A program made the position numbers and the translations under genes. 64,000 nucleotides of DNA from an uncultured Oscillospiraceae bacterium (GTDB lineage: Bacteria; Bacillota; Clostridia; Oscillospirales; Ruminococcaceae): the NCBI GenBank assembly GCA_964490175.1, contig CAZBAI010000002.1, forward strand, positions 21,381 to 85,380. Reading direction: 5' to 3'. Shown piece by piece: positions 6,779 through 63,487 of this stretch. The notes below the pieces were generated by a model. It had not been told where the DNA came from and made no database searches. It saw nothing but the letters and a program-made list of their open reading frames with translations. Positions within the stretch are counted from its first letter, which is position 1, and the number at the start of each line of letters is the position of its first letter.

Positions 6779-8371
6779 ATGCGTAAAACAAATAACACGT
6801 TGATTGCACTGCTTTTGTGCTTATCGTCATTGCTTGCCGGCTGTAACAATGACCAAACTTCGCCACAATCTTCGCTTGCGAACGTTACAACGACAAGCGC
6901 AGTCACAACCGATGATTTAACATCTCAAATTCATGATGATTTTGAGTTTTCACAGCAGGTTTTGAGTGGGAATTTCGGTGAAATCAACTGGAAGATTGAT
7001 GAATACGGGCTGCTTGTTGTTTCGGGAAACGGCGCAATTTCGGACTTTGTAAATAGTGAGGATGTGCCGTGGCATGAAATTTGCGATGATATTCTTTATG
7101 TTAAGGTCGAAAGCGGAATAACCGATATCGGTGCAGGCGCTTTTTGCAATTGCAAAAATGTTCGCCGAATTATGATTTGCGGTGAAATCAGCTCAATCGG
7201 CAACTATGCATTTTTTGGGTGCGAATCACTTAAAACGCTGTCGATTGGCGGAAATGTTGCTTCAATCGGAATTTCGGCATTTGAAAATTGCTATACGCTT
7301 GAAGAAATCGATGCAGAGTTAAATCCGACTTTAATCGCAAAATGTGCCTTTAAAAACTGTATTTCGCTGTGTCAAGCGCCTAAGCTTTACAATATAAATC
7401 GCATTGAGGACTACACGTTCAGCGGCTGCATCTCAATGCAATTTGATGAAATTCCGCAAAATGTCGAATGCATCGGCAGGGGAGCGTTTGAAAACTGCAA
7501 GGCTCTGCTTGATTTAACTTTGCCGCCGTGCATAGATGAAATTTGCGAGTCGGCATTTGCAGGCAGTGGGCTTTGTGAGCTGACGATTCCAAGCAATGTT
7601 ACGACTATCGGCATTGCCGCTTTCGCTAATTGTGAAAAATTGCAGACCCTGTCGCTTTCCGATGGGCTTATTGACATTGAAATGGCGGCGTTTTCGGGGT
7701 GCACGGAGTTGCAGACTGTTTTGATTCCGCAGAGTGTTGAATATATTGACAGCAATGTTTTTGCACACTGCACATCGCTATATGCAATAAATGTTGATGA
7801 AAATAACGCCAATTATCAAAGCGTTGACGGTGTTTTGTATACCGAATCTATGCGAACATTAAAGCAATATCCTTTAGGGTGCGATAAATCGGAGTTTGTG
7901 CTGCCTGCAAGGGTGACGGCGATTGAGCCGGGTGCGCTTTACGGAAAATCGGCTTTGAACAGTGTTGATGTTGAGCAGGGGAATTGGTCTTATACCTCGC
8001 TTGACGGTGTTTTATACGCCGGCTCATATGAAGAAGTGGTGTATTATCCGTATGGCAAAACCGACAAAAGCTACTTGGTACCGGCTACTGTAACTTCTGT
8101 TGATATTTATGCCTTTTACGGTAACGAATATCTTGAAAACGCTATTTTGACGCCGCAGGTTAAGCATATAGGCGGCGGTGCGTTTGAAAACTGCAAAAAT
8201 CTTTCAAGCGTTGATATTCGTGAAGATATCGACTATATCGGGAAGAACGCATTTATCGGAACAGGACTGAATTGTGAATTTTCGTTTTGTGACGGTGTTG
8301 AGTATTTTGAATCTTCATTCCCGAACGGGTGCACGGTTTCGATTATGCAAAGTTCTGAAATTCATGAATAA
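6779..8371 (+). CDS. BspA-type leucine-rich-repeat surface lipoprotein
   Basis: The 530-aa protein has a lipobox LLAGC. It contains many ~23-aa repeats of the LRR_5 type (I..I...AF..C..L..I.IP..V..IG..AF). Confidence 0.85.
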   Translation: MRKTNNTLIALLLCLSSLLAGCNNDQTSPQSSLANVTTTSAVTTDDLTSQIHDDFEFSQQVLSGNFGEINWKIDEYGLLVVSGNGAISDFVNSEDVPWHEICDDILYVKVESGITDIGAGAFCNCKNVRRIMICGEISSIGNYAFFGCESLKTLSIGGNVASIGISAFENCYTLEEIDAELNPTLIAKCAFKNCISLCQAPKLYNINRIEDYTFSGCISMQFDEIPQNVECIGRGAFENCKALLDLTLPPCIDEICESAFAGSGLCELTIPSNVTTIGIAAFANCEKLQTLSLSDGLIDIEMAAFSGCTELQTVLIPQSVEYIDSNVFAHCTSLYAINVDENNANYQSVDGVLYTESMRTLKQYPLGCDKSEFVLPARVTAIEPGALYGKSALNSVDVEQGNWSYTSLDGVLYAGSYEEVVYYPYGKTDKSYLVPATVTSVDIYAFYGNEYLENAILTPQVKHIGGGAFENCKNLSSVDIREDIDYIGKNAFIGTGLNCEFSFCDGVEYFESSFPNGCTVSIMQSSEIHE

Positions 8372-35767: not shown

Positions 35768-35833
35768 GTTCTAACGTAAGCGGAACAAATGTGCGCTGCG
35801 TTGAGGAGCTGTCAGAGAATTAGAGGAGCTGTT

Positions 35834-36646
35834 ATGATAAATAAGCGTTATTTTGCTGTATTGTTATCTGCCTTTCTTCTCACGTTTTCCCTCGCTTCTT
35901 GCAAAGCTTCTTCCGATACTGACGATGACGGCTTTAATACCGATGTCGTCGTTTCCGATGCTGTCGATTATAACGTTGAGGATATTCCGGCAGCACCCTC
36001 TTCGGATTTCGCTTATGTCGTGAGTGATTCAAAGGTTTTTATCACTCGTTATAACGGTCACGCCGCCGAGGTGGCGGTTCCGTCGCAAATTGATGAAATG
36101 CAGGTTACTTCAATACTTTCATCTGCATTTTTCGGAAATGAAGAACTGTGTGCGATAGTTATACCCGAGGGTGTTACCTCAATTAAAGACAACGCCTTTT
36201 ACGATTGCTCGTCGCTTGTGTTTGTTTCACTTCCCTCAACGCTTGATTTGCTCGGTGAAAGTGTTTTTGCCAATTGCACTTCGCTTCAATCGCTTACATT
36301 GCCGAGTCGCATTTCTCAAATACCCAAGCGTTGTTTTTACGGCTGTACTTCGCTGAAAGAAGTAGTAATGGGTTCTCATGTCGGTCATATCGGTGATTAT
36401 GCGTTTGCTGAGTGTGATTCGATTGTAGGTTTATCATTGTCTGATACAATTGTTTCAATCGGTGAATTTGCCTTTTTCAACTGTGAGAATTTATCTGCCG
36501 TTCAATTTTACGGCGACACCGTGTTCGCTAAAACCACGTTTTTGCAAACGCCGCAACTCACGCTTTATGTAAACAAAGGCTCACAGCCATATGAGCTTGC
36601 TACTCAATACCACATATCATATATGGTCAATAACACGATATCTTAA
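35834..36646 (+). CDS. BspA-type leucine-rich-repeat lipoprotein
   Basis: The sequence begins MINKRYFAVLLSAFLLTFSLASC (lipobox) and continues with LRR_5-type repeats. The start at 35834 follows GAGGAG. Confidence 0.8.
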   Translation: MINKRYFAVLLSAFLLTFSLASCKASSDTDDDGFNTDVVVSDAVDYNVEDIPAAPSSDFAYVVSDSKVFITRYNGHAAEVAVPSQIDEMQVTSILSSAFFGNEELCAIVIPEGVTSIKDNAFYDCSSLVFVSLPSTLDLLGESVFANCTSLQSLTLPSRISQIPKRCFYGCTSLKEVVMGSHVGHIGDYAFAECDSIVGLSLSDTIVSIGEFAFFNCENLSAVQFYGDTVFAKTTFLQTPQLTLYVNKGSQPYELATQYHISYMVNNTIS

Positions 36647-36668: not shown

Positions 36669-36745
36669 GTGCCCGTAGCTCAGCCGGATAGAGTGACTGG
36701 CTACGAACCAGTAGGTCAGGGGTTCGAATCCCTTCGGGCACGCCA
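36669..36745 (+). tRNA. tRNA-Arg (anticodon ACG)
   Basis: The 77-nt sequence GTGCCCGTAGCTCAGCCGGATAGAGTGACTGGCTACGAACCAGTAGGTCAGGGGTTCGAATCCCTTCGGGCACGCCA folds as a cloverleaf. The anticodon loop is CTACGAA, the T-loop is GTTCGAATC, and CCA is encoded. Confidence 0.95.
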
Positions 36746-36804: not shown

Positions 36805-36914
36805 CCACGAAGATTTTACCTTTTTGCGCTTTTTATCTAAGCTTTATTTATGCTGTGCAATTTGTAAAGCCAAGATAAATATGCTGAATTTTACGTTAAA
36901 TTTACTTTTGCCTA

Positions 36915-36943
36915 TTGCAAAATGTAAAATTCTGTGTTACAAT
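36915..36943 (+). promoter_or_regulatory. Sigma70-like promoter of the riboswitch-led operon
   Basis: TTGCAA (36915-36920), a 17-nt spacer, then an extended -10 TGtTACAAT (36935-36943). Confidence 0.5.
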
Positions 36944-36965
36944 ATTACAAATTTAATATGATAAC

Positions 36966-37170
36966 AGAAGATACGGTTTGAAAAGTTGTTTGCTGAGTAA
37001 ATGTAAAAGGAAATCCGGTTCGAGCCCGGAACAACCGCCATTACTGTATTTGATGGATTTAGCTTGCTTTCATGCTTTTGGGCTTTGTTGATGTGTGCCC
37101 TGAAAAGCTAAGCTTTTTGCGGTATGTTTTTACCGCTGTCATCATAAGTCAGGAACCTGCCGTGTCTTTT
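36966..37170 (+). promoter_or_regulatory. Cobalamin (B12) riboswitch aptamer
   Basis: The core AAAAGGAAATCCGGTTCGAGCCCGGAACAACCGCCATTACTGTA (~37005-37048) resembles the conserved GGGAA..GGUG..UCC..GC.G.CCCGC.ACUGUA region. The B12-box-like AAGTCAGGAACCTGCCG lies at 37146-37162. A closing P1 candidate pairs 36968-36977 with 37160-37169. The downstream genes are cobalamin-associated families. Confidence 0.65.
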
Positions 37171-37293
37171 TCGGGTCAACACAGCTTTGGTGTGAAGAGT
37201 GCAACCGGTTTATCAAACTGAAAATTCGGCTTTGTATTTTGCATCTTCACTCAATATACAGCTGCTGTGTTTTTTGTTCGGTTTATCAGTTGT

Positions 37294-37332
37294 GCCCTGT
37301 CAGCCATTTTTACGGTTGACAGGGCTTTTTTG
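37294..37332 (+). terminator. Intrinsic terminator in the riboswitch expression platform
   Basis: GCCCTGTCA (37294-37302) pairs with TGACAGGGC (37317-37325), followed by TTTTTTG. It lies 58 nt upstream of the first ORF. Confidence 0.7.
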
Positions 37333-37389
37333 TTTAAAAACAGTGATTTGGTTATCTGCCGATTTTAATATGAATGGGGGAAATGTGAA

Positions 37390-38271
37390 ATGAACGGATT
37401 TGAGCGCACTCATCCGGCTGTTTTGGCGCTGTATTTTGTTTCTGTTATGCTCATTGTTATGTTTTCTTCAAACCCTTTTTTGAATATTATAGCGCTCATC
37501 GGTGCGCTTTCGTTTTATATATCATTGAATTTCGGCGCACATCTTGTAAAAGAACTCGGCTTTTCGGCTTTGCTGTTTTTGCTCGTTGCGCTGTCAAATC
37601 CCTTATTTTCGCACAAAGGCTCTACCGTTTTGTTTTTCTTTAACAATAATCCCATAACGCTTGAATCAACGCTTTGCGGAATCGGCAATGCAATTATGCT
37701 CAGTGCCGTTATATACTGGTTTAAATGCTTAAATTCGGTCTTGAATTGCGAAAAGCTTTTGTACCTGATCGGCGGCTTTGCCCCGAAAACCGCCTTGATT
37801 ATATCCTCGTCACTGCGGTTTATTCCGCTTTTTAAATCACAAGGCGAAAAGATTCAAAATGCACAGATTACAATGGGGCTGTATTCAAGTGACGCTTGGA
37901 TCGATAAACTTTTCGGCAATGCACGTGTTTGCTCGGCGCTTATCACACAAAGTCTTGAAAATGCCGTTGATACAGGCAATTCGATGAAAGCACGTGGATA
38001 CGGCTTGAAGCCGAGGACGCATTATTTATTTTGCCCTTTCAGGTTTCGTGATGCCGTAATGCTTGTATTGCTGATTTTGGTTGATTTTTTTCTGTTTTAT
38101 TCGCTGTATATGGGTGATTTTGAATTTATGTTTTATCCGCAGATTATTTATGCGTTTCCGAGTGTTTTGTCCGTTTTTGCGTATATATTGTTTGCGCTAT
38201 TGTGTCTGTTGCCGATTTTTTTGAGGATTAAGGAGGAGCTTGTATGGATATATTGCAAATCGAAAATTTAA
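37390..38271 (+). CDS. ECF transporter transmembrane (T) component, CbiQ/EcfT family
   Basis: The 293-aa polytopic protein carries the coupling-helix A-R-G motif (SMKARGYG). It overlaps the next gene by 28 nt. Confidence 0.8.
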   Translation: MNGFERTHPAVLALYFVSVMLIVMFSSNPFLNIIALIGALSFYISLNFGAHLVKELGFSALLFLLVALSNPLFSHKGSTVLFFFNNNPITLESTLCGIGNAIMLSAVIYWFKCLNSVLNCEKLLYLIGGFAPKTALIISSSLRFIPLFKSQGEKIQNAQITMGLYSSDAWIDKLFGNARVCSALITQSLENAVDTGNSMKARGYGLKPRTHYLFCPFRFRDAVMLVLLILVDFFLFYSLYMGDFEFMFYPQIIYAFPSVLSVFAYILFALLCLLPIFLRIKEELVWIYCKSKI

Positions 38272-39941
38272 GCTTTTCCTACCCTTTAGCCAAAAGCAAC
38301 GCTTTGTCCGATATTTGCTTTTCCGTAAAATCGGGCGAATTTGTTGTTGCCTGCGGCGAATCGGGCTGCGGTAAATCCACGCTTTTGCGCCTGATTAAAA
38401 GGGAAATCACACCGTATGGAAATATACAAGGGCGTATACTTTACAGCGGTGTTGAAACTTCAAAGCTTGAGCATAGAGTGTCGGCGGCGCAAATCGGATT
38501 TATTATGCAAAATCCCGAAAGTCAAATCGTTACCGATACGGTTCGGCATGAGCTGGCGTTTACGCTTGAGAGTTTAGGGTTTGATTCAAAGGTGATTCGG
38601 CGCAAAGTTGCCGAAACAGCGTGCTATTTTGGAATTGAGCATTTGTTTGACAAAAAGACAGCCGAGCTTTCCGGCGGTGAAAAACAACTTGTAAATCTTG
38701 CTTCGATAATCGCCGCCGAGCCGAAAATCTTACTTCTTGACGAGCCGACTTCACAGCTTGACCCGATTGCCGCTTCAAATTTTATCGCCATGCTGAATAA
38801 GCTCAATCTTGAAACCGGTCTTACCGTAATTATTGTCGAACACAGGCTTGAAGAGCTTTTTGAAATCGCAGATAAAGTGCTTTTTATGAAAAACGGCAAA
38901 AATGTATTTTTCGGCAGCCCAAAACACTGCGCCGAATATTTTTCAAAAAACTCAGAGGATAATGCAAAAAAAATTTTGCCGAGCGCCGTGCGCATATATA
39001 CAGCGCTTGAAAATAACGGAAATTCGCCGCTGACGGTTAAATCCTGCCGTGAATATATATCACAAAATTATTCAAATAAAATAGATTCGCTTGAAATTTG
39101 CGAATATTGTCAAAGCGAGAAAAAAGCGTTAGAGTTTAAAGATGTGTATTTTCGCTATGGCAAAAATTCGCCCGATGTGCTCAAAGGCGCTTCGTTTTCG
39201 GTGGGAAAAGGCGAGCATTTCTGCCTTCTCGGCGGCAACGGCAGCGGCAAAACGACCGTATTGAGCATTGCCGCACGGCTTTTAAAACCGTATCACGGCA
39301 AGGTGATGATAGATGGCAAAAACGCCGATAGCTTTTCAAAAAATAAGCTGTATGACGGAAACATAGCGCTTTTGCCGCAAAATCCGCAGAATATATTTGT
39401 TGAAAAAACGTTATCTCGGGATTTGCTTTTGACCTGCAATGTTATGAAATACACTCAAAGTGAAGCTTTTGACAGAATAACTCAGCTTGCCGAGCTTCTT
39501 GATATTGCGCATTTGCTTGATTCTCACCCATATGATTTGAGTGGCGGAGAACAGCAAAAAGCGGCTTTGGCAAAGGTGCTGATTTTAAATCCCAAAATTT
39601 TGCTGCTTGATGAGCCTACAAAGGGTATTGACGCAATTGCAAAAGCAAAGCTTATTGAAATATTGAAAACTCTCAAAAGTAAGGGAATCACTGTTTTAAA
39701 CGTTACTCATGATGTTGAATTTGCAGCGCAAAGCGCCGACCGTGTGGGAATGCTGTTTGACGGTCAGCTTGTTTCAAGCGATACGCCGATTCGTTTCTTT
39801 TCGCAAAACAGCTTTTATACCACGGCGGCAAGCCGCATTGCCAAAGGAATATATAAAAATGCGGTTTTGTGCGAGCACGTTGTTGAGCTTTGCCGAAAAA
39901 ATAAAAATGCACAAATGGGTTTGCAAAATGAAAAAATATAA
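38244..39941 (+). CDS. ECF transporter fused double ATPase (EcfA-EcfA')
   Basis: The 565-aa protein has two complete ABC cassettes. These are GESGCGKST/LSGGEKQ/LLLDEPTSQLD and GGNGSGKTT/LSGGEQQ/LLLDEPTKGID. AGGAGG RBS upstream. Confidence 0.9.
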   Translation: MDILQIENLSFSYPLAKSNALSDICFSVKSGEFVVACGESGCGKSTLLRLIKREITPYGNIQGRILYSGVETSKLEHRVSAAQIGFIMQNPESQIVTDTVRHELAFTLESLGFDSKVIRRKVAETACYFGIEHLFDKKTAELSGGEKQLVNLASIIAAEPKILLLDEPTSQLDPIAASNFIAMLNKLNLETGLTVIIVEHRLEELFEIADKVLFMKNGKNVFFGSPKHCAEYFSKNSEDNAKKILPSAVRIYTALENNGNSPLTVKSCREYISQNYSNKIDSLEICEYCQSEKKALEFKDVYFRYGKNSPDVLKGASFSVGKGEHFCLLGGNGSGKTTVLSIAARLLKPYHGKVMIDGKNADSFSKNKLYDGNIALLPQNPQNIFVEKTLSRDLLLTCNVMKYTQSEAFDRITQLAELLDIAHLLDSHPYDLSGGEQQKAALAKVLILNPKILLLDEPTKGIDAIAKAKLIEILKTLKSKGITVLNVTHDVEFAAQSADRVGMLFDGQLVSSDTPIRFFSQNSFYTTAASRIAKGIYKNAVLCEHVVELCRKNKNAQMGLQNEKI

Positions 39942-40620
39942 AAATATTTTAACTATTGTATTGCTCGGATTATTCATTCCGCTTTTTACGGTTTTCGGGG
40001 CAATTGTATTCAAGCAGCGCCATTATGCCTTTATTTGCCTTTGCGTTGCGATTATTTCCTGCGTTCCTCTGTTTTACGCCTTTGAACGTGCCGAGGCGAC
40101 CTCAAAGGAGCTTGCGGTTCTTTCCGTTATGATTGCGCTTTCGGTTTGCGGCAGATTTATTTTTGCGGTTATTCCCGGATTTAAACCGATAACTGCCATT
40201 ACCGTGATTTGTGCGATTCATCTCGGCAAAGAAGCCGGCTTTGTTGTAGGTGCGCTTTCCGCTGTTGTGTCGAATTTTTATTTCGGGCAAGGGCCGTGGA
40301 CGCCTTTTCAAATGTTTGCATGGGGATTTTTGGGGCTTGCCGCAGGTCTTGCTTCCGAACCTTTAAAAAAAAGCAAGGTTGCACTGTGTATATACGGGGC
40401 GTTATCCGGCGTTATCTTTTCGCTGATTATGGATATTTGGACAACCCTTTTGATTGACGAAACCTTTAATCTTCAAAGATATATCGCCGCTGCTGTATCG
40501 GCATTGCCCTTTACAGTCGAATATGCGGTTTCCAATGTGATTTTTCTTTTGCTTTTGTCTAAACCTATCGGCGAAAAGCTTGAAAGAATTAAGATTAAAT
40601 ACGGTTTGTTTGCCGTTTAA
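39928..40620 (+). CDS. ECF transporter substrate-specific (S) component, probable corrinoid specificity (CbrT-like by context)
   Basis: The preferred ATG at 39928 overlaps the ATPase stop. The product begins MKKYKNILTIVLLGLFIPLF.... It is about 230 aa with 6 TM segments, an S-component size and topology. Specificity is inferred only from riboswitch context. Confidence 0.65.
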   Translation: MKKYKNILTIVLLGLFIPLFTVFGAIVFKQRHYAFICLCVAIISCVPLFYAFERAEATSKELAVLSVMIALSVCGRFIFAVIPGFKPITAITVICAIHLGKEAGFVVGALSAVVSNFYFGQGPWTPFQMFAWGFLGLAAGLASEPLKKSKVALCIYGALSGVIFSLIMDIWTTLLIDETFNLQRYIAAAVSALPFTVEYAVSNVIFLLLLSKPIGEKLERIKIKYGLFAV

Positions 40621-40678: not shown

Positions 40679-41578
40679 ATGAAAAAATTACTTAGCACCG
40701 CAATTGCGCTTGCAATTGTTTCAACCGCTTCGGCTTTTTGTGCATCGGCAGCAGACGATGCGTCCGCATCGGTATACGTCACCGTGTCGAATAAAGGCGA
40801 GCTTGTTGCGATTTCGCAAAAAGTCAGCGTTACCGATATCGACAGTGACGGCGCTTTGACTGTAAATGATGCGCTTTATGCACTGCACGAGGATTCATAT
40901 AGCGGCGGCGCTTCGGCGGGATACAGCTCATATACGGGCAGTTACGGGCTTTCTCTCGGTATGCTTTGGGGCGATAACAGCGGAAATTTCGGTTATTGTA
41001 AAAACAATACCATGTGCTTTTCGCTTGCCGATACCGTTGCCGACGGCGATTATATAACGGCTTATATTTACAGCGATACCGATAATTATTCCGATATGTA
41101 CACGTTTTTTGATGTAAACGAGCTTGAAGCCGAGCAGAAAAGCCAAATCACGCTTACGCTTTCAGGTTTGGGCTATGACGATAATTGGAACAGCGTTACA
41201 AAGCCGGTTGAGGGTGCAAAAATCACGTTAAACGGCATTGAAACGGATTTTGTTACCGACGCACAGGGAAAAGTTACATTTTCGATTGAAGATTGCGGCG
41301 AATGTGTTATCAGTGCAAAATCCGATACACAGGTAATCGTGCCGCCCGTTTGCCTTGCCGATATCATTGAAACGCCTGATAATAACGAAGTGACAAGCAC
41401 TAATCAGACAACCGCTTTAACCCAAACGCAGGCGCAAACAACAACCGCAACCCAAGCTGCCGCAACGCCTAATACAGGTGAAGAAACAAGGACTGTGCAA
41501 TGTGCGGCATTTGTGCTGTTTTGCGTTTTGGGCGTATCGGCAATTACCGTATCCGCAAAATTAAAAAATGAAAAATAA
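40679..41578 (+). CDS. Cell-surface DUF4430-type (transcobalamin beta-domain-like) protein with sortase-type C-terminal anchor
   Basis: The signal peptide is MKKLLSTAIALAIVSTASAFCASA. A DUF4430-like module follows (VYVTVSNKGELV...LTVNDALYAL...GYCKNN...VADGDYITAYIY). Then come an Ig-like module, a T/Q-rich linker, and a TPNTGEE motif with a hydrophobic helix and a KLKNEK tail. Confidence 0.65.
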   Translation: MKKLLSTAIALAIVSTASAFCASAADDASASVYVTVSNKGELVAISQKVSVTDIDSDGALTVNDALYALHEDSYSGGASAGYSSYTGSYGLSLGMLWGDNSGNFGYCKNNTMCFSLADTVADGDYITAYIYSDTDNYSDMYTFFDVNELEAEQKSQITLTLSGLGYDDNWNSVTKPVEGAKITLNGIETDFVTDAQGKVTFSIEDCGECVISAKSDTQVIVPPVCLADIIETPDNNEVTSTNQTTALTQTQAQTTTATQAAATPNTGEETRTVQCAAFVLFCVLGVSAITVSAKLKNEK

Positions 41579-43250
41579 GCTGCATTCTCTTTTGGCGCTG
41601 CTTGCTGCAATTGCGGTATTGTTAAATTTACCCGCATTGCAGCTGTGCGGTGCCGATATTTCCGATTCTGCCGACATAATAAACCAAATCACCGAATATA
41701 AGCTCAGCGAAGGCTCATATAATGATATTGAAGAGTGGATAAACGGTGCTTTAACGCAGTCTGCCGGAGTTGATTCGGAGTGGTATATAATCGGGCTGAG
41801 CCGAATCTGCGATTATGATTTTTCAAATTATCGCAAAGCTTTGGGTGAATATTTAAGCGCAAATGAAATAGGTTCGGCTTCCTCACGCCAAAAATGCGCC
41901 CTTGCGCTGATTGCCGCAGGCGATACCGACGCTTTGTATATTCAAGAAACGCTTAATAATTCTATTGGCGAGCAGGGGATAATGAGCCTGATATTCGGCT
42001 TGCACCTTTTAAATAACGGATACATATCGCCGCAGTTTACTTTGCAGCAGGTAAAGCAACAGCTTTTGTCACTGCAATTGACTGACGGTGGCTTTGCCGT
42101 TATGGGCACTGTTTCGGATGTTGATACAACCGCCATGGCGATTTCGGCGCTTGCATCGTATTATGAAACCGATTCCGATGTTAAAGCTTGCATTGATACT
42201 GCAATTGAATTTCTTTCATCAAAGCAAAATGCTTTGGGTGATTTTTCAAGCTACGGCACTGATAATGCCGAAAGTACCGCACAGGTGCTTATAGCTCTTT
42301 CATCGCTTGGCATCGACGCTGTGAGCGATGTGCGGTTTATCAAAAATTCAAACACTATATTTGATGCTCTTGCGCAATATAGTTTGCCAAGCGGCGGATT
42401 TTCGCATACAAAAGGCGGCGAAGTCAATGAGCTGGCAACGGTGCAGGTTTTTCTCGGTGCAATTTCTTATCGGCTTATGCTTGAAAACAACGCCTCGCTT
42501 TATGACTTTGCCGATAGATTTTGCGATGAAAGCGAGAGCGATAACGTTTCTCAAAGCGAATCTTCTTACATATCTAATTCTGATAAAGATGAACAGTCTG
42601 TTTTGACAACGCATGAAAGTCAAACACAAAGCGAAATTGATGTGCCAAGCGATTCGGCAAATCTAAAAATTACGTCAAATTACAAGATATGGGCGATTTT
42701 GGCGATTTCGATTATTTGTCTTATTGTTTGCGTTGCGATGTTTGCATTAAAACGGCGCAATTTTAAAAATTATATCGTTGTGATAATATTGGCGTTGCTA
42801 TGCGTTATCTTTGTGCTTGCAACCGATTTTAAAACTGCCGATGAATTTTACAATGCAAATTCTTCGCCTGACAGTTCAAAGTATGAAAACAGCGTTACAA
42901 TTTCGATTAGTTGCGATGAAATAAAGGATAAAAATATATCGTATATTCCTGATGACGGCATTATACTTAACGATACCGTCATTGGATTTTGTGACGGCGA
43001 AAGTGTGTATGATATTCTTTTGCGTGCGTCATCCCAAAACAAAATCCGCATTGACGCAAGCGCTGTGGGCAAATCCGTTTATATCAAGGGCATTGCCGAT
43101 ATATATGAATTTGACTTCGGCGAGCTTTCCGGCTGGATGTATTATGTAAACGACGAAAAGCCTTCTGTCGGGTGCGGCGAATATATTGTCTGTCAAGATG
43201 ATGTAATCGAATGGGTTTATACCTGTGATTATACCGATAAGGACTTTTGA
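41568..43250 (+). CDS. Membrane protein with an N-terminal alpha/alpha-toroid (prenyltransferase/terpene-cyclase-like repeat) domain, a TM hairpin and a C-terminal DUF4430 domain
   Basis: The 560-aa protein starts with a signal peptide. It has repeats LQLTDGGFAV...DVDTTAMAISALASYY, KQNALGDFSS...AESTAQVLIALSSLG and LPSGGFSH...ATVQVFLGAIS. An acidic/Ser linker follows. The two TM helices are WAILAISIICLIVCVAMFAL and YIVVIILALLCVIFVLATDF, separated by KRRNFKN. The DUF4430 module reads VTISISCDE...GESVYDIL...GWMYYVNDEKPSVGCGEYIVCQDDVIEWVY. The start overlaps the previous stop. Confidence 0.7.
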   Translation: MKNKLHSLLALLAAIAVLLNLPALQLCGADISDSADIINQITEYKLSEGSYNDIEEWINGALTQSAGVDSEWYIIGLSRICDYDFSNYRKALGEYLSANEIGSASSRQKCALALIAAGDTDALYIQETLNNSIGEQGIMSLIFGLHLLNNGYISPQFTLQQVKQQLLSLQLTDGGFAVMGTVSDVDTTAMAISALASYYETDSDVKACIDTAIEFLSSKQNALGDFSSYGTDNAESTAQVLIALSSLGIDAVSDVRFIKNSNTIFDALAQYSLPSGGFSHTKGGEVNELATVQVFLGAISYRLMLENNASLYDFADRFCDESESDNVSQSESSYISNSDKDEQSVLTTHESQTQSEIDVPSDSANLKITSNYKIWAILAISIICLIVCVAMFALKRRNFKNYIVVIILALLCVIFVLATDFKTADEFYNANSSPDSSKYENSVTISISCDEIKDKNISYIPDDGIILNDTVIGFCDGESVYDILLRASSQNKIRIDASAVGKSVYIKGIADIYEFDFGELSGWMYYVNDEKPSVGCGEYIVCQDDVIEWVYTCDYTDKDF

Positions 43251-43565: not shown

Positions 43566-43594
43566 TTGACACAGCGCTACATATGTGATATAAT
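43566..43594 (+). promoter_or_regulatory. Sigma70 consensus promoter of the Mn riboswitch-mntP unit
   Basis: TTGACA (43566-43571), a 17-nt spacer, then an extended -10 TGaTATAAT (43586-43594). Confidence 0.65.
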
Positions 43595-43700: not shown

Positions 43701-43746
43701 AAAGTCGGCTTGTGCCATGCGTGGGTTTTGTGTTTGCTTAAAAATG

Positions 43747-43785
43747 CCAAGCGTGGTTTTGCCGTGCTTGGTTTATTTTTATTTT
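43747..43785 (+). terminator. Intrinsic terminator of the Mn riboswitch expression platform
   Basis: CCAAGCGTGG (43747-43756) pairs with CCGTGCTTGG (43762-43771), followed by TTTATTTTTATTTT. Confidence 0.7.
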
Positions 43786-43800
43786 AGCGGAGTGATGAAT

Positions 43801-44385
43801 ATGAATTTTGGTTTTGCTTTCTTTTTCAACAGTATTTTACTTGGCGTAGGGCTTGCAATGGATGCTTTTTCGGTTTCGCTTGCAAACGGTTTGAATGAAC
43901 CTAAAATGAAAAAATCGAAAATGTGCGGAATTTCCGGCGTTTTTTGCGCATTTCAATTTGCAATGCCGATGATTGGATGGATATGCGTTTCAACCATAGC
44001 ACAGTATTTTAAGGCGTTTGAAAAATGCATTCCGTGGATTGCGCTTGTTTTGCTTTCATATATCGGCGGCAAAATGTTGTTTGAGGGCATAAAAAACAAA
44101 GGCGGCGATGAGAATTGCGCCGCTGTCGGAGTGGGAGCGCTTTTGTTGCAGGGCGTTGCCACTTCTATCGACGCTTTATCCGTAGGATTTACCATTGCCG
44201 ATTACGACCTGCCGCACGCTTGCTGTGCCTGCCTTTTAATCGGTGCGGTTACATTTTTGATTTGTTTTGCAGGGCTTGCAATCGGAAAAAAAGCCGGCAC
44301 AAGACTTGCGGGAGGCGCAGGGATTCTCGGCGGTTCGATACTTATATTTATCGGGCTTGAAATATTTATATCGGGCGTTATGTAA
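43801..44385 (+). CDS. mntP: Manganese efflux pump MntP
   Basis: The sequence begins MNFGFAFFFNSILLGVGLAMDAFSVSLANG... and has a second DALSVG motif (TSIDALSVGFT). I prefer the ATG at 43801, 8 nt after GGAG. The longer track ORF would run through the riboswitch terminator. Confidence 0.9.
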   Translation: MNFGFAFFFNSILLGVGLAMDAFSVSLANGLNEPKMKKSKMCGISGVFCAFQFAMPMIGWICVSTIAQYFKAFEKCIPWIALVLLSYIGGKMLFEGIKNKGGDENCAAVGVGALLLQGVATSIDALSVGFTIADYDLPHACCACLLIGAVTFLICFAGLAIGKKAGTRLAGGAGILGGSILIFIGLEIFISGVM

Positions 44386-55828: not shown

Positions 55829-56052
55829 TCATTTCCTCCTTTACCGTATTGTACATATATATTGTACATTATTATTTTAAAGCTTTTGTTAAATTATTTT
55901 TAATATAAAAATACGACGTGTTTTAACGGTGATTTAACATTGAAAAGATATATTTTACTTACACAAAGGGCAATATTAGCCGCGGAATGTTTTTTTAAAA
56001 TTTCCGATTGCCCGAAATATCACTAAAATCAACATTTTTGGGAGGAATATCA

Positions 56053-58077
56053 ATGCTTACAAAAGCATTAAAGCGAACGCTGTCGGGCGCTTGTGCTGTC
56101 AGTGTTGCCGCTTGCTGTATGCAAAGCGCCTGCGCTACGGTCACCTTATCGGGCGATGCAAACGGCGACTCTTGTTTTAATTCAAGCGACCTTGCAACAG
56201 CGCAGAGTGTTTTGCTGCGTGCGCAGAGCATAGGTTCACAGTATATGGAAAACTGTGATATGAACAGTGACGGCATTTTCAACGCAGTTGACCTGCTCAT
56301 TATGCGCCGCACCCCGTTTGGCGGTGCTTTGGATACGGACAACACCGTCACCGAAATACAATATGCCGAATCAGGCGTTACACTTTACAACGCCTCGGGC
56401 AATGTTGTTGAGGCAAACAAAGCTTTGAACGTTACTGTCGAAAACAACACATACGTTACGGTTATCGCTCCGAGCGATATTGACGTTTCCGGCACTTGTT
56501 CTTCGGGTCAGCTTGCGGTAGACTGTGATAAAACAGCCTATGTTGACGGTGCTGTTACCTTTAATCTCAAGGGCTTGACCCTTTCAAACACATCTACATC
56601 GCCGATTTATATTGCCGCAATTGACGATGAGGTCGTATTCGCCAGCAAAAAAGGCTATACCAACACGATTACGGACGGAAGCGATTATACAAACGCTTCG
56701 GGTGATTGCGGTGCGATTTATGCCTGTGATGACATCAAATTCAAGGGCAAGGGCGTTTTGAATGTAAACGGCAACTGTCAAGACGGTATTGTTTGCAAAA
56801 ACGATATCAAGATTTGGAACGGCACGCTTAACGTTACAGCGGCAGATGACGGTATAAGGGGAAAGGATTCGGTAAGAATCGGCGACCCCGACGCTACCGA
56901 TTATTCATCGCTGAATGTAACCGTAAAAGCTTTGGGCGGTGACGGAATCAAATCAACGGACGACTCCGACACAAGCTGCGGATTTGTTCGCATAAACGGC
57001 GGCAATATAAATGTTAATTCCTACGGCGATTGCATTTTCGGCGTGTATAATGTCGAAATCAACGGCGGCTCATTGGAGCTTGTATCGGAAACCACATACG
57101 GAACGACCAGCTCAAAGGGCATAAAATCCGGATATACCGATGATGACACAGACACCGAATATACCGGTAATGTCACAATCAACGGCGGATATATGAATAT
57201 TAACACAACCGATGACTGCATTAACTCAAACGGCAATATCGACCTTATCGGCGGTCAGATGGAGCTGACGATAAACGCAACAAGTTTTTCCGATGATAAA
57301 GACGGACGTCAGGCAATTCATGCCGATGACACTATCAATATCGGCACAAGCGGAAACGAAACCGTTTATGACGATGTAACGATTATTGTATATAACGCTT
57401 ATGAGGGTCTTGAAGGATATAATATCAACCAGATGAGCGGCAGCGTAATAGTCAATTCATATGATGACGGCTTTAACGTTGCGGGCGGTGCGGATGATTC
57501 CGGCTCTTCCGATTTCCGTCCCGGAATGGGCGGCGGCATGAGTGGTTTCGGCAGTTCTTCCACTGCCGGTGACCTTGTAATCAGCGGCGGATTCTCACTT
57601 GTAAATGCTCAAGACGGTGATCATGACGGCTACGATTCCAACGGAAACATCATCATTTCGGGCGGCATTGCCATCTCCAACGGCAACGACCCGTTTGACT
57701 GGGGCGACAGCGGTACAATTACCTATTCCGGCGGTGTTTATGTTGAAAACACAGGTTCAGGCGGCATGGGCGGCTTTGGAGGAATGGGCGGCTTCGGCGG
57801 CATGGGCAACAGTTCATCAATGACCCAATCTGTCAGCGTATCGACATCGCTCAGTGCGCAAACAAGAATCACGCTTTGCGACGGCTCGGGCAATGTTATC
57901 GTTTCGTTTATTGCGGATAAGAGCGTAACTTCGCTGGTTGCAGGCTGCACGGCATACAGCGGCGCTGCATTCTATTCCGGCGGAACGTTGACAAATTCAA
58001 CTTATTTCCAAACGCTTGACGATACTCAGCTTGCAGCATACGGCGGAACGTTATCAAACGGCACAAAGCTCGGCTGA
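56053..58077 (+). CDS. Secreted N-terminal-dockerin protein with a beta-helix carbohydrate-binding (Cthe_2159-like) region and Gly/Met-rich repeats
   Basis: The signal peptide is MLTKALKRTLSGACAVSVAACCMQSACA. The dockerin segments are GDANGDSCFNSSDLATAQ and DMNSDGIFNAVDLLIMRR. Repetitive D-G-I/ING-G beta-helix-like turns follow, then GGMGGFGGMGGFGGMG near the C-terminus. The start at 56053 follows GGAGG. Confidence 0.7.
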   Translation: MLTKALKRTLSGACAVSVAACCMQSACATVTLSGDANGDSCFNSSDLATAQSVLLRAQSIGSQYMENCDMNSDGIFNAVDLLIMRRTPFGGALDTDNTVTEIQYAESGVTLYNASGNVVEANKALNVTVENNTYVTVIAPSDIDVSGTCSSGQLAVDCDKTAYVDGAVTFNLKGLTLSNTSTSPIYIAAIDDEVVFASKKGYTNTITDGSDYTNASGDCGAIYACDDIKFKGKGVLNVNGNCQDGIVCKNDIKIWNGTLNVTAADDGIRGKDSVRIGDPDATDYSSLNVTVKALGGDGIKSTDDSDTSCGFVRINGGNINVNSYGDCIFGVYNVEINGGSLELVSETTYGTTSSKGIKSGYTDDDTDTEYTGNVTINGGYMNINTTDDCINSNGNIDLIGGQMELTINATSFSDDKDGRQAIHADDTINIGTSGNETVYDDVTIIVYNAYEGLEGYNINQMSGSVIVNSYDDGFNVAGGADDSGSSDFRPGMGGGMSGFGSSSTAGDLVISGGFSLVNAQDGDHDGYDSNGNIIISGGIAISNGNDPFDWGDSGTITYSGGVYVENTGSGGMGGFGGMGGFGGMGNSSSMTQSVSVSTSLSAQTRITLCDGSGNVIVSFIADKSVTSLVAGCTAYSGAAFYSGGTLTNSTYFQTLDDTQLAAYGGTLSNGTKLG

Positions 58078-61775: not shown

Positions 61776-62300
61776 TTATTGTCCTTTGCCGATTCCCTTG
61801 TTATATAGTTTATGCATTCCGCATTTCCAGCACAGTATCATGCCTAAAACTGCGCCCACAACCGCCTGCAAAATCTGATAAGGAAGTTTTAGCAACGCAT
61901 ATTCGGGCGTGCTGTAAATAAATGCTCTGCCGAGCGAATATCCTACAACCATGATGACTGCGCCGAGTGTAACGCCGATTCCCGAAGATATTACGGGGTG
62001 TTTTTTCAAAACATAGTGTGAAAAGACGGAGATAACCACAGCTTGTAGTCCGTGCGTTGCCAGCGAAACAAACATCGGAGCGGGGTAAAAAAACATATCG
62101 CCCAAGAAAGCTCCGACGCCGCCTACCATAAATGCCGCAAATGGGTCGAGCAAAATCGAAGCGGTGCAGATAACGATATCGTTCATGTAAAGGTGACCGC
62201 CCGGAACGGGAACGCCGAACGAGCTCATAGCAACATTAAGCGCCATAAACATTGCCGTTGTGCAAAGCCAAAGTGTTGTTCTTTTTTTTGTGTCTTTCAT
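61776..62300 (-). CDS. ECF transporter S component (orphan; substrate unassigned, vitamin B6 vitamer suspected from context)
   Basis: The 174-aa protein has 5-6 TM segments and the typical S-component pattern (TAMFMALNVAMSSF..P.P...HLYMNDIVI....LLDP..AFMVGGVGAFLGD). It is divergent from a MocR/PdxR-type regulator. Confidence 0.6.
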   Translation of the reverse strand: MKDTKKRTTLWLCTTAMFMALNVAMSSFGVPVPGGHLYMNDIVICTASILLDPFAAFMVGGVGAFLGDMFFYPAPMFVSLATHGLQAVVISVFSHYVLKKHPVISSGIGVTLGAVIMVVGYSLGRAFIYSTPEYALLKLPYQILQAVVGAVLGMILCWKCGMHKLYNKGIGKGQ

Positions 62301-62392: not shown

Positions 62393-63487
62393 ATGAACTA
62401 TACAATAAAAAAAGAAGAACGACCTATATATTTGCAGGTATATAAGCAAATAAGAGATGACATTATAGCCGGGGCATATCCGTATATGAGCAAGCTTCCA
62501 TCAAAAAGGCTGCTTGCCGACGAAATCGGAATCAGCACGATAACTGTTGAACACGCATATTCTCTCTTGTGTGACGAGGGCTATGCAGAGGCACGTGAAA
62601 AGAGCGGATATTTTGTTATATTCAAGCAAACAGACTGCTTTGCATCATCCGGCATCATTGATGTTTTGCCGATAAATCATAAAATCATCACACCGTCTTA
62701 TCCGAATCTGTCCATTTCCGTTTTGTGCAAAACGATGAGAAAGGTCATTACCGATTACTATGATGTGATGTTGGAAAAGTCGCCGAATACGGGCTGTTTG
62801 GAGCTGCGAAACGCTATAAAACATTATCTTTTGCGCAACCGTGCAATGAATGTTGAAGTTAATCAAATCGTAATCGGTTCGGGAGCGGAATATTTATATA
62901 CGTTGATTATCGAGCTTCTCGGCAAAGACAAAACCGTTGCAATCGAGAATCCGTCTTATGAGAAAATCGAACAGATTTATCGCACCGCACAGGTGAACTG
63001 CGAATTGTTGCCATTGGCTAAAGACGGTATTGACAGTAAATCGCTTTCAATGTCCAAAGCCGATATATTACACACCACACCGTACCAGAGTTATCCGAGC
63101 GGCGTAACAGCTTCGGCTTCAAAAAGGCACGAATACATAAAATGGGCGGAAAAGGGCGAATGCTTTATAATAGAATCCGATTACGGTTCCGAATTTTCCG
63201 TATCATCACAGCCGATGGAAACTTTGTTTAAGCTTTCAAATTCCGATAATGTGATTTATTTGAACACATTTTCAAAAACAATTTCGTCTTCAATGCGTGT
63301 GGGATATATGGTTCTTCCGAAAAAGCTGATAAAACCTTTTGACGAAAAGCTCGGATTTTATTCTTGCACCGTTCCCACATTTGAACAGTATGTTTTGACA
63401 GAACTGTTAAACAGCGGCGATTTTGAAAGGCACATCAACCGTGTGCGAAGAGCTATAAGAAAAGAATTGCGCAGCAAACAGCCTTAA
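62393..63487 (+). CDS. MocR/PdxR-type regulator (GntR wHTH + fold-type I aminotransferase-like domain), short form
   Basis: The N-terminal GntR HTH is PSKRLLADEIGISTITVEHAYSLLCDEGY. The aminotransferase-like core has the PLP-lysine context NTFSKTISSSMRVGY. At 364 aa it ends soon after the HINRVRR helix. Confidence 0.75.
   Translation: MNYTIKKEERPIYLQVYKQIRDDIIAGAYPYMSKLPSKRLLADEIGISTITVEHAYSLLCDEGYAEAREKSGYFVIFKQTDCFASSGIIDVLPINHKIITPSYPNLSISVLCKTMRKVITDYYDVMLEKSPNTGCLELRNAIKHYLLRNRAMNVEVNQIVIGSGAEYLYTLIIELLGKDKTVAIENPSYEKIEQIYRTAQVNCELLPLAKDGIDSKSLSMSKADILHTTPYQSYPSGVTASASKRHEYIKWAEKGECFIIESDYGSEFSVSSQPMETLFKLSNSDNVIYLNTFSKTISSSMRVGYMVLPKKLIKPFDEKLGFYSCTVPTFEQYVLTELLNSGDFERHINRVRRAIRKELRSKQP

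Follow-up and report, generated by a model that had tools for sequence, protein, structure and literature searches.

A transcobalamin-like protein interrupted by a conserved transmembrane hairpin is encoded with a CbrT-type ECF transporter in rumen and gut Clostridia

We analysed a stretch of 64,000 nucleotides (hereafter, the window) from an uncultured Oscillospiraceae bacterium (GenBank assembly GCA_964490175.1, contig CAZBAI010000002.1, positions 21,381 to 85,380 of the forward strand), which carries an operon of five tightly packed or overlapping genes headed by a cobalamin riboswitch (Table 1). The first three encode the T component, the fused ATPase AA' and the S component of an energy-coupling factor (ECF) transporter, and they are followed by the genes of two surface proteins, here called N and X. 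Protein X, the subject of this work, is the product of a 560-codon open reading frame (ORF; 41568-43250, plus strand). A sequence-only reading of this DNA had described X as a membrane-tethered counterpart of the vitamin B12 carriers of animals, positioned beside an ECF transporter; this transporter is the T-AA'-S set of the same operon, and all of the peptides quoted in that reading are found in the translation of X.

Hydropathy analysis marks three segments in X (residues 8-26, 376-394 and 403-421), the first of which lies in a signal peptide that would be cleaved at CGA/D. Near the C-terminus, residues 477-552 match DUF4430 (PF14478) with 56.6 bits (cutoff 23.8, E 3.6e-15), covering positions 1-71 of the 72 in the profile, which agrees with the module proposed for this region, and the N-terminal domain gives two Pfam hits, both below threshold, to Prenyltrans (23.3 bits, cutoff 26.5) and SQHop_cyclase_C (17.6 bits, cutoff 26.1). 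At this level X is a DUF4430/SLBB member, and neither a Cobalamin_bind member nor a cyclase. An AlphaFold2 model of the apo protein, built from 108 homologues, has a mean predicted local distance difference test score (pLDDT) of 86.4. In this model, residues 29-307 form an alpha/alpha toroid of 13 helices, mostly with pLDDT above 90, as had been anticipated for the N-domain. Residues 321-368, an acidic, Ser-rich linker already noticed in the sequence, are disordered (pLDDT 35-42 across the leash), and the two expected hydrophobic helices (372-393 and 399-418, pLDDT above 90) are joined by the loop K395-R-R-N-F-K-N401. The C-terminal domain consists of strands 441-448 and 465-474, a helix at 480-490, a hairpin of strands 495-500 and 503-509, and strands 522-527 and 546-552. 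This order (beta-beta-alpha-[hairpin]-beta-beta), a beta-grasp with a hairpin after the helix, is the one described for the beta-domain of transcobalamin (TC).

Comparison of the model with the PDB by Foldseek returned TC, intrinsic factor (IF) or haptocorrin (HC) as all of the top 15 matches (E 1e-7 to 3e-6, probability 1.00), in alignments of approximately 530-570 columns that include both domains. The toroid of X is thus followed by the beta-domain within a single chain, as in these carriers, and the proposed two-domain transcobalamin-like architecture, together with the similarity to cobalamin-binding proteins, is supported by the best whole-chain fold matches. The next matches, to class II terpene cyclases and prenyltransferase beta subunits, cover the toroid only. 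When compared with the isolated human TC beta-domain (5no0), X gives a TM-score of 0.76 and a root-mean-square deviation (rmsd) of 3.2 A. Moreover, the helix-start motif VDTxAMA is read as VDTTAMA in X (residues 185-191), VDTAAMA in TC (175-181) and VDTGAMA in IF; the longer form VDTGAMATLAL, which the sequence-only reading had attributed to IF, is indeed present in 3kq4_A (residues 145-156). Since toroid repeats resemble one another, we treat this correspondence as a lead only, its register being unproven; a pairwise local alignment of the X and TC alpha-domains slipped to a different toroid repeat.

Protein searches identified at least 1257 relatives of X, of which the 120 listed are 523-845 amino acids (aa) long, approximately 36-65% identical, and named at NCBI only as 'DUF4430 domain-containing protein'. 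All 120 possess a signal-like N-terminal segment and an adjacent pair of transmembrane (TM) segments located about 140-160 residues from the C-terminus. Loop, tether and conservation figures were taken from an alignment of 108 homologues. The loop between the two helices (TM1 and TM2) comprises 8 residues in 106 of these sequences and has the consensus KKRNxKN; its net charge lies between +2 and +6 in all 108, and the outer flanks of the hairpin are mostly neutral or acidic. Mean column conservation reaches 0.70 in the loop versus 0.49-0.50 in the TM helices; the conserved positions are Y372, K373, W375, C388, L391, K395, N401 and T419, with W375, C388, L391 and T419 kept at 85-90% or more. 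Hence, the hairpin architecture is conserved and does not reflect chance. In the beta-domain, C449, Y505, Y513, G518, S521, G522, W523 and Y551 are invariant. The alpha-domain contains the invariant polar positions K109, N150, D186, Q220, E235, Q239, D254, H280 and Q293.

The two connections to the hairpin differ considerably. The linker from the alpha-domain to TM1 spans 23-138 aa (median 80), is rich in S, T and E and has a column conservation of 0.27, whereas the link from TM2 to the beta-domain (residues 420-440 of X) measures 17-21 aa in 108 of 108 sequences and contains the conserved Y427/Y428. The tethers are therefore very unequal, and the beta-domain would be held near the membrane and the alpha-domain on a long leash. 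Both globular domains are predicted to lie outside the cell, because X has a signal peptide and a strongly basic 8-residue loop (positive-inside rule), which matches the topology suggested from sequence. The same reading had the flexible linker replaced by the hairpin. This part has to be revised: the disordered linker is kept throughout the family, and the hairpin is an addition to it, not a replacement.

Two cysteines of the beta-domain may be mentioned here. Cys449 (in TIRCDT) is the invariant one listed above, and Cys536 (in SVGCGEY), which is at least 90% conserved, lies in the connector of the last two strands, the region contacting cobalamin (Cbl) in TC. The two residues could form a disulfide staple or provide a cobalt ligand; in BtuM, a cysteine serves as the axial ligand.

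The best match of the S component among PDB sequences is 6fnp_A (E 5.1e-10 over 166 residues, 61-226). This structure is ECF-CbrT of Lactobacillus delbrueckii, which imports cobalamin and cobinamide in an ATP-driven manner and with which hemin does not compete (PMC5997447). In addition to the CbrT homologue, the operon encodes a T component and ATPases and is preceded by a B12-class riboswitch and a terminator, the latter being the likely expression platform (attenuator) of the riboswitch; this is the composition of an operon for CbrT-type ECF uptake of B12. Both the riboswitch heading the operon and the CbrT-homologous S component point to B12.

Table 1. Features of the X operon and its immediate surroundings in the window, in order of position
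Feature	Coordinates	Strand	Evidence and remarks
Promoter-like hexamer pairs 5' of the riboswitch	36901-36943	+	consensus scan, 9/12 matches, weak
Cobalamin riboswitch aptamer (RF00174)	36957-37178	+	Rfam 42 bits against gathering score 31.5, E 3.3e-7, full-length model match
Intrinsic terminator	37294 to 37325-37335	+	12-bp stem with 8 G-C pairs, then TTTTTTGTTT; about 55-65 nt 5' of the first gene
ECF T component, CbiQ-like	37390-38271	+	Pfam CbiQ E 3.7e-10; 28-nt overlap with the AA' gene
Fused ECF ATPase A-A', two ATP-binding cassette (ABC) domains	38244-39941	+	Pfam ABC_tran twice; NCBIfam ECF_ATPase_1 359 bits and ECF_ATPase_2 334 bits, above cutoff
ECF S component, CbrT-like	39928-40620 (likely start; ORF open from 39709)	+	Pfam ECF-ribofla_trS E 3.6e-12
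N, 299 aa	40679-41578	+	alignments; AlphaFold2 pLDDT 86; stop overlaps X start by 11 nt
X residues 1-28, signal peptide (MKNK, hydrophobic core, CGA/D)	41568-41651	+	hydropathy 8-26; model helix 2-19, disorder 22-28
X residues 29-319, alpha/alpha toroid, transcobalamin alpha-domain-like	41652-42524	+	AlphaFold2 helices, Foldseek, family profile
X residues 320-371, disordered S/T/E-rich leash	42525-42680	+	pLDDT 35-42
X residues 372-421, TM hairpin with cytoplasmic loop K395-RRNFK-N401	42681-42830	+	model and hydropathy
X residues 422-440, short juxtamembrane tether of fixed length, consensus TDFQSxDxYY	42831-42887	+	alignment and model helix 424-430
X residues 441-556, DUF4430/SLBB beta-grasp, transcobalamin beta-domain-like	42888-43235	+	Pfam PF14478, Foldseek
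Small Cys-rich protein (PF04071), 90 aa	43260-43532	+	Pfam E 2e-25; 10 nt 3' of X

A scan of one genome per species found a relative of X in at least 591 species genomes, mostly those of rumen or gut Clostridia. The species-locus counts given here cover the best 80 of them, which are almost all from rumen or gut Clostridia (Ruminococcus, Acutalibacteraceae, Oscillospiraceae, Lachnospiraceae, Ruminiclostridium and Tyzzerella) and include the cultured strains R. flavefaciens FD-1, MA2007 and Y1; the closest named relatives of X are encoded in Oscillospiraceae, Ruminococcus and Tyzzerella metagenome-assembled genomes. According to tblastn, N lies directly 5' of X in approximately 75 of the 80 loci and T-A-S is present in approximately 72, usually in the order N-X-T-A-S, the T-A-S-N-X order of the window being a minority. 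In six relatives on long contigs, the set of T, AA', S, N and X is kept between unrelated flanks. The Rfam Cobalamin model matches upstream of the cassette in five of the six related loci having upstream sequence, and a sequence profile of six aptamers matches at the cassette head in 55 of 80 species loci, some of these matches being weak. When ten of the profile-negative loci were re-examined, three revealed an AdoCbl-II variant (RF01689) in place of the classic aptamer just 5' of N (L045:2924-2999, L047:5896-5971 and L053:866-945). Moreover, seven loci of the N-X-T-A-S order (L016, L021, L027, L035, L038, L043 and L054) possess a second cobalamin-riboswitch-like copy between X and T; hence, the capture and transporter genes may be separately B12-controlled units there. 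A CbrT-type B12 ECF system is thus accompanied by a membrane-tethered transcobalamin-like module and a wall-anchored partner in hundreds of species of rumen and gut Clostridia, the whole set being controlled by a B12 riboswitch.

The partner protein, N, starts with a signal peptide, followed by a first domain that is conserved and beta-rich, a second one that is all-beta, and a low-complexity stalk. At the C-terminus, an (S/P)xTG-type motif (PNTGE here), a TM helix and a basic tail constitute a sortase-type wall anchor; Gram_pos_anchor is matched in 6 of 56 family members. The second domain is transthyretin/Ig-like, with DUF4198/CarboxypepD_reg matches in up to 46 of the 56 and only Ig-like matches in Foldseek. 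The overlap between the N stop and the X start, seen here and in several relatives, suggests coupled translation. The first domain of N has the same order of secondary-structure elements as the SLBB beta-domain and a similar GYYVNN...GDY motif. Nevertheless, we found no support for N as a second SLBB protein, i.e., the paralogue of the 2007 study discussed below: hhalign aligned only signal peptides or a motif (E 0.043, probability about 1%), DUF4430 is matched in none of the 56 family members, and the Foldseek matches are Ig-like only.

The relationship between N and X in one genome offers a possible explanation for the internal hairpin. P0084 (L010:8001-10538, GCA_965340035.1; gene order NX-T-A-S) is a natural N-X fusion of 845 aa, with five hydrophobic segments and three predicted extracytoplasmic modules. 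Its junction reads ...TGEPKNNGCG - SVIAISAVSVVAVAAAAGFICF - KKKRRL - MKLRFSVGLLCCLILLSCIGVLSV - TAEA..., that is, the anchor helix and basic tail of N are joined in frame to the start codon and signal peptide of X, which creates a second TM hairpin with a basic loop. By analogy, the hairpin of X itself (TM1 - KKRNxKN - TM2) would most simply be the scar of a fusion between a C-terminally anchored alpha-protein and a beta-protein with an N-terminal signal sequence. Separate alpha and beta proteins exist in L. sakei (bioRxiv 10.1101/864751).

We consider it probable that X is an extracytoplasmic, membrane-anchored corrinoid-capture protein serving a dedicated CbrT-type ECF importer of vitamin B12. 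In TC and IF, Cbl binds the beta-domain first and the alpha-domain closes after, the association of the domains being ligand-dependent (PMC11107200). In the case of X, export via the signal peptide would leave the toroid outside the cell on its long disordered leash; TM1 would then run inward, the 8-residue basic loop would lie in the cytoplasm, and TM2 would run outward, placing the SLBB beta-domain approximately 20 residues from the membrane surface. The membrane-proximal beta-domain would be the first to capture a corrinoid, the tethered toroid would subsequently clamp or select the ligand, and the latter would be handed to the S component for ATP-driven import. The wall-anchored, co-translated N would probably extend capture into the cell wall, and B12 would switch the whole operon off through the riboswitch and terminator. 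The hairpin, presumably derived from fusion, would have been retained as an anchor.

Several observations weigh against this interpretation. At the level of sequence, no TC, IF or HC chain was retrieved from the PDB sequences by phmmer of X, by the 108-sequence profile or by the beta-domain profile, and Pfam Cobalamin_bind gave no match to X at E up to 0.01. Alignment of the family profile with human TC (a sequence verified as identical to 7qbf_A) by hhalign reached a probability of only 8.9% (E 0.0037) and involved the beta-domain alone, although this weak stretch (X 471-550, TC 328-405) falls in the expected register. The only PDB hits of the 108-sequence profile are squalene-hopene cyclase and drimenyl-diphosphate synthase, at approximately 3e-7; the detection of their toroid repeats indicates that the toroid folds are homologous, but it also places the alpha-domain nearer to terpene cyclases. 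Whole-chain superposition of X on the TC, IF and HC structures yields an rmsd of 11-14 A; hence, the modelled arrangement of the domains differs from the closed sandwich of holo-TC. Seven of the ten re-examined profile-negative loci have no riboswitch at the Rfam gathering score. Finally, a related operon of L. sakei, in which split alpha and beta proteins accompany an ECF transporter, has been tied experimentally to the uptake of heme rather than B12 (bioRxiv 10.1101/864751).

The role of the hairpin deserves separate consideration. Besides anchoring X, it may serve within the membrane to dock the protein to the S component or to EcfT as a scaffold, which would make X a true subunit of the transporter in physical contact with it. 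This possibility, which concerns the hairpin only, is suggested by the loop, whose length and KKRNxKN sequence are conserved beyond the need of a simple stop-transfer signal, and by the TM positions kept at 85-90% or more (W375, C388, L391 and T419). On the other hand, most TM positions vary freely among hydrophobic residues, the basic loop is already required by the positive-inside rule, and the junction in P0084 illustrates how readily fusion creates hairpins of this type; we therefore regard docking as a tentative proposal. An extended version, in which X is a capture subunit docked to CbrT/EcfT through the hairpin and the KKRNxKN loop and receives its corrinoid from N in a wall-to-membrane relay, appears similarly doubtful. 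Were it correct, an ECF transporter would for the first time be seen to have a binding-protein module of its own, the absence of which defines the class, and X would count as an extant relative of the bacterial protein from which the animal B12 carriers arose.

A different question is whether a corrinoid bound by X would reach the transporter at all, since X might instead hoard B12 at the surface against competitors, strip it from carriers of the host or others, select among cobamides or act as a reservoir. Such a role would rest on the same corrinoid-binding evidence as capture for import, and the long leash of the alpha-domain suits outward reach; BtuG, the surface B12-binding lipoprotein of Bacteroides, with its extreme affinity and competitive role, offers a precedent. 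However, X is linked to T-A-S in approximately 72 of 80 species loci, in two gene orders and under common riboswitch control, which argues for a single functional unit, and the tether that keeps its beta-domain near the membrane is short and of fixed length. We thus find a role uncoupled from import unlikely.

Substrates other than corrinoids have to be considered as well, since the same architecture could capture heme or another tetrapyrrole for an ECF transporter. The L. sakei genes lsa1836-1840 encode an ECF transporter together with separate TC-alpha-like and TC-beta-like proteins, and their link to heme is based on a deletion mutant and docking (bioRxiv 10.1101/864751). In the present case, however, a B12-class riboswitch heads the cassette both in the window and in most relatives, so expression responds to B12; moreover, the closest solved relative of the S component is CbrT, and hemin did not compete in B12 transport by ECF-CbrT. 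Hence, we judge a heme-type substrate to be improbable for X.

Finally, the N-domain could be a terpene-cyclase/prenyltransferase-type enzyme acting on an isoprenoid or envelope lipid, with DUF4430 as an accessory, as the cyclase matches of the family profile (E 3e-7, its only ones in the PDB), the weak Prenyltrans and SQHop_cyclase_C matches and the resemblance of D184-V-D186-T-T-A to the cyclase motif DxDDTA might suggest, but we reject this reading of the toroid as extremely unlikely on the grounds of motif, single toroid, location and context: class II terpene cyclases possess a catalytic DxDD(TA) motif and a two-toroid (beta-gamma) body, whereas X lacks the last Asp of DxDD (DVDT in X, DVDVTA in the family consensus), has a single toroid, would hold it outside the cytoplasm and away from isoprenoid diphosphate pools, and carries it fused to a beta-domain of the B12-carrier type, under a B12 riboswitch and beside a B12-type importer, and VDTxAMA is shared by the non-enzymes TC and IF.

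Capture of a corrinoid by X for import can be compared with several known systems. The mammalian carriers TC, IF and HC (2BB5, 2PMV and 4KKI) share with X an N-terminal alpha6/alpha6 toroid, a C-terminal beta-grasp with a hairpin insert and the VDTxAMA helix-start motif, and they are extracellular, as X is predicted to be. However, they are soluble, have a short interdomain linker and use an endocytic receptor, whereas X has a 52-aa disordered linker and two TM helices between its domains, relatives have leashes of 23-138 aa and the same TM hairpin, and X goes together with an ECF importer. A functional analogy is provided by BtuG and BtuH at the Bacteroides surface and by the periplasmic BtuF of BtuCD, in which a high-affinity corrinoid binder precedes the membrane transporter; their folds (a beta-propeller and a class III substrate-binding protein) are unrelated to that of X, and they work with TonB-dependent or type II ABC transporters, not with ECF systems. 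ECF transporters are, in textbook terms, ABC importers that dispense with a binding protein outside the cytoplasm, and the ECF module used by ECF-CbrT is shared, not dedicated. The transport activity of ECF-CbrT was reconstituted from the ECF module and CbrT alone, and the words 'operon' and 'riboswitch' are not mentioned in the text of that study (PMC5997447); what it has in common with the operon described here is the ECF type and a homologous S component. In L. sakei, Lsa1839 (beta-like) and Lsa1840 (alpha-like) stand beside a dedicated S component, fused AA' and T (Lsa1836-1838), as in the window, but they are separate secreted proteins whose assigned substrate is heme (bioRxiv 10.1101/864751), whereas X is one chain through the membrane, and regulation and S component here point to B12.

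The closest precedent is the work of Burroughs, Balaji, Iyer and Aravind (2007; PMC1796856), cited here from part of its text. These authors defined the SLBB superfamily, described bacterial fusions of an alpha/alpha toroid with a TC-like SLBB domain in either order, predicted that toroid-SLBB proteins encoded in CbiO/CbiQ operons act as B12 scavengers, and proposed that the animal B12 carriers derived from Firmicutes. Their proteins, among them an example from Desulfotomaculum, resemble X in the domain pair, in the secreted or surface location and in the neighbouring CbiO-like ATPase, CbiQ-like membrane protein and second extracellular protein. The sequence-only reading thus implied more novelty than is warranted, since a bacterial two-domain B12 clamp beside a CbiO/CbiQ transporter was published in that article and a split version had been studied in L. 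sakei, and the core of our interpretation is already in the literature. The part of the article cited here contains no mention of a TM hairpin between the domains, of a riboswitch or of a CbrT-type S component, all of which are seen at the present locus. In the literature searched, we likewise found no report of a single chain split by a hairpin or of the strict conservation of such a chain, nor of asymmetric tethers, a quantitative riboswitch linkage or the CbrT-type S component. Hence, what is new is that the hairpin architecture is conserved, that the tethers are asymmetric and that the linkage to B12 is strong. In the X family, the clamp of the TC/IF mechanism can be viewed as naturally split and hence separable domain by domain, and the 2007 proposal of a Firmicutes origin of the animal carriers could be tested on bacterial material that includes the cultured strains of Ruminococcus flavefaciens. 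If X and N do capture corrinoids, this would shed light on how anaerobic Gram-positive bacteria of the gut compete for B12 when it is scarce.

The surroundings of the cassette provide some further observations. The gene of the small PF04071 protein is probably co-transcribed with X in the window, no terminator being found between the two. We nevertheless rejected it as a member of the cassette, since only 3 of 90 loci (L009, L028 and L031) have a homologue in the vicinity of the cassette; the PF04071 domain is also found in cobalamin-biosynthesis contexts. Another small conserved protein (66-95 aa), cytoplasmic-looking and with a Pfam HNH_repeat match, is placed between the riboswitch and the ECF T gene in three relatives (L001:3700-3987, L003:3637-3888 and L009:3300-3500). 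It has the core ELGRLPKKDDFDxVTRSRIKAFLGPWPRALEAAGLKE and was found by tblastn in 50 of 90 related loci; it is absent from the corresponding interval of the window (37179-37389). Just 5' of the riboswitch lies a tRNA gene (36669-36742). On the other side of the cassette, a perfect sigma-70 promoter (43566-43594, plus strand; TTGACA, 17 nt, TATAAT, with an upstream TG) precedes an MntP-family gene (43717-44385), the annotated start of which is overlapped by terminator-like hairpins (43707-43772, plus strand). This ORF may therefore truly begin at a more downstream position, or it may be preceded by a leader element; at the gathering score, Rfam gave no match around the gene start.

Elsewhere in the window, Pfam matches were surveyed for 30 more ORFs, all outside the cassette region and 150 aa or longer, and revealed neither B12 biosynthesis genes nor genes of B12-dependent enzymes. 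Another ECF S component, this one solitary (61776-62300, minus strand; ECF-ribofla_trS, E 3.7e-24) is divergently paired with a PdxR-like regulator of the GntR plus aminotransferase-fold type (62393-63487, plus strand). A similar arrangement of S component and regulator, together with a pyridoxal-kinase-like gene, occurs in a related locus (L007), which suggests that this S component is related to vitamin B6. The surface proteins encoded on the plus strand at 35789-36646, 6779-8371 and 56008-58077 comprise BspA-type leucine-rich-repeat proteins and a dockerin-bearing Cthe_2159-like protein, consistent with a cellulosome-type, fibre-degrading organism resembling Ruminococcus/Oscillospiraceae.

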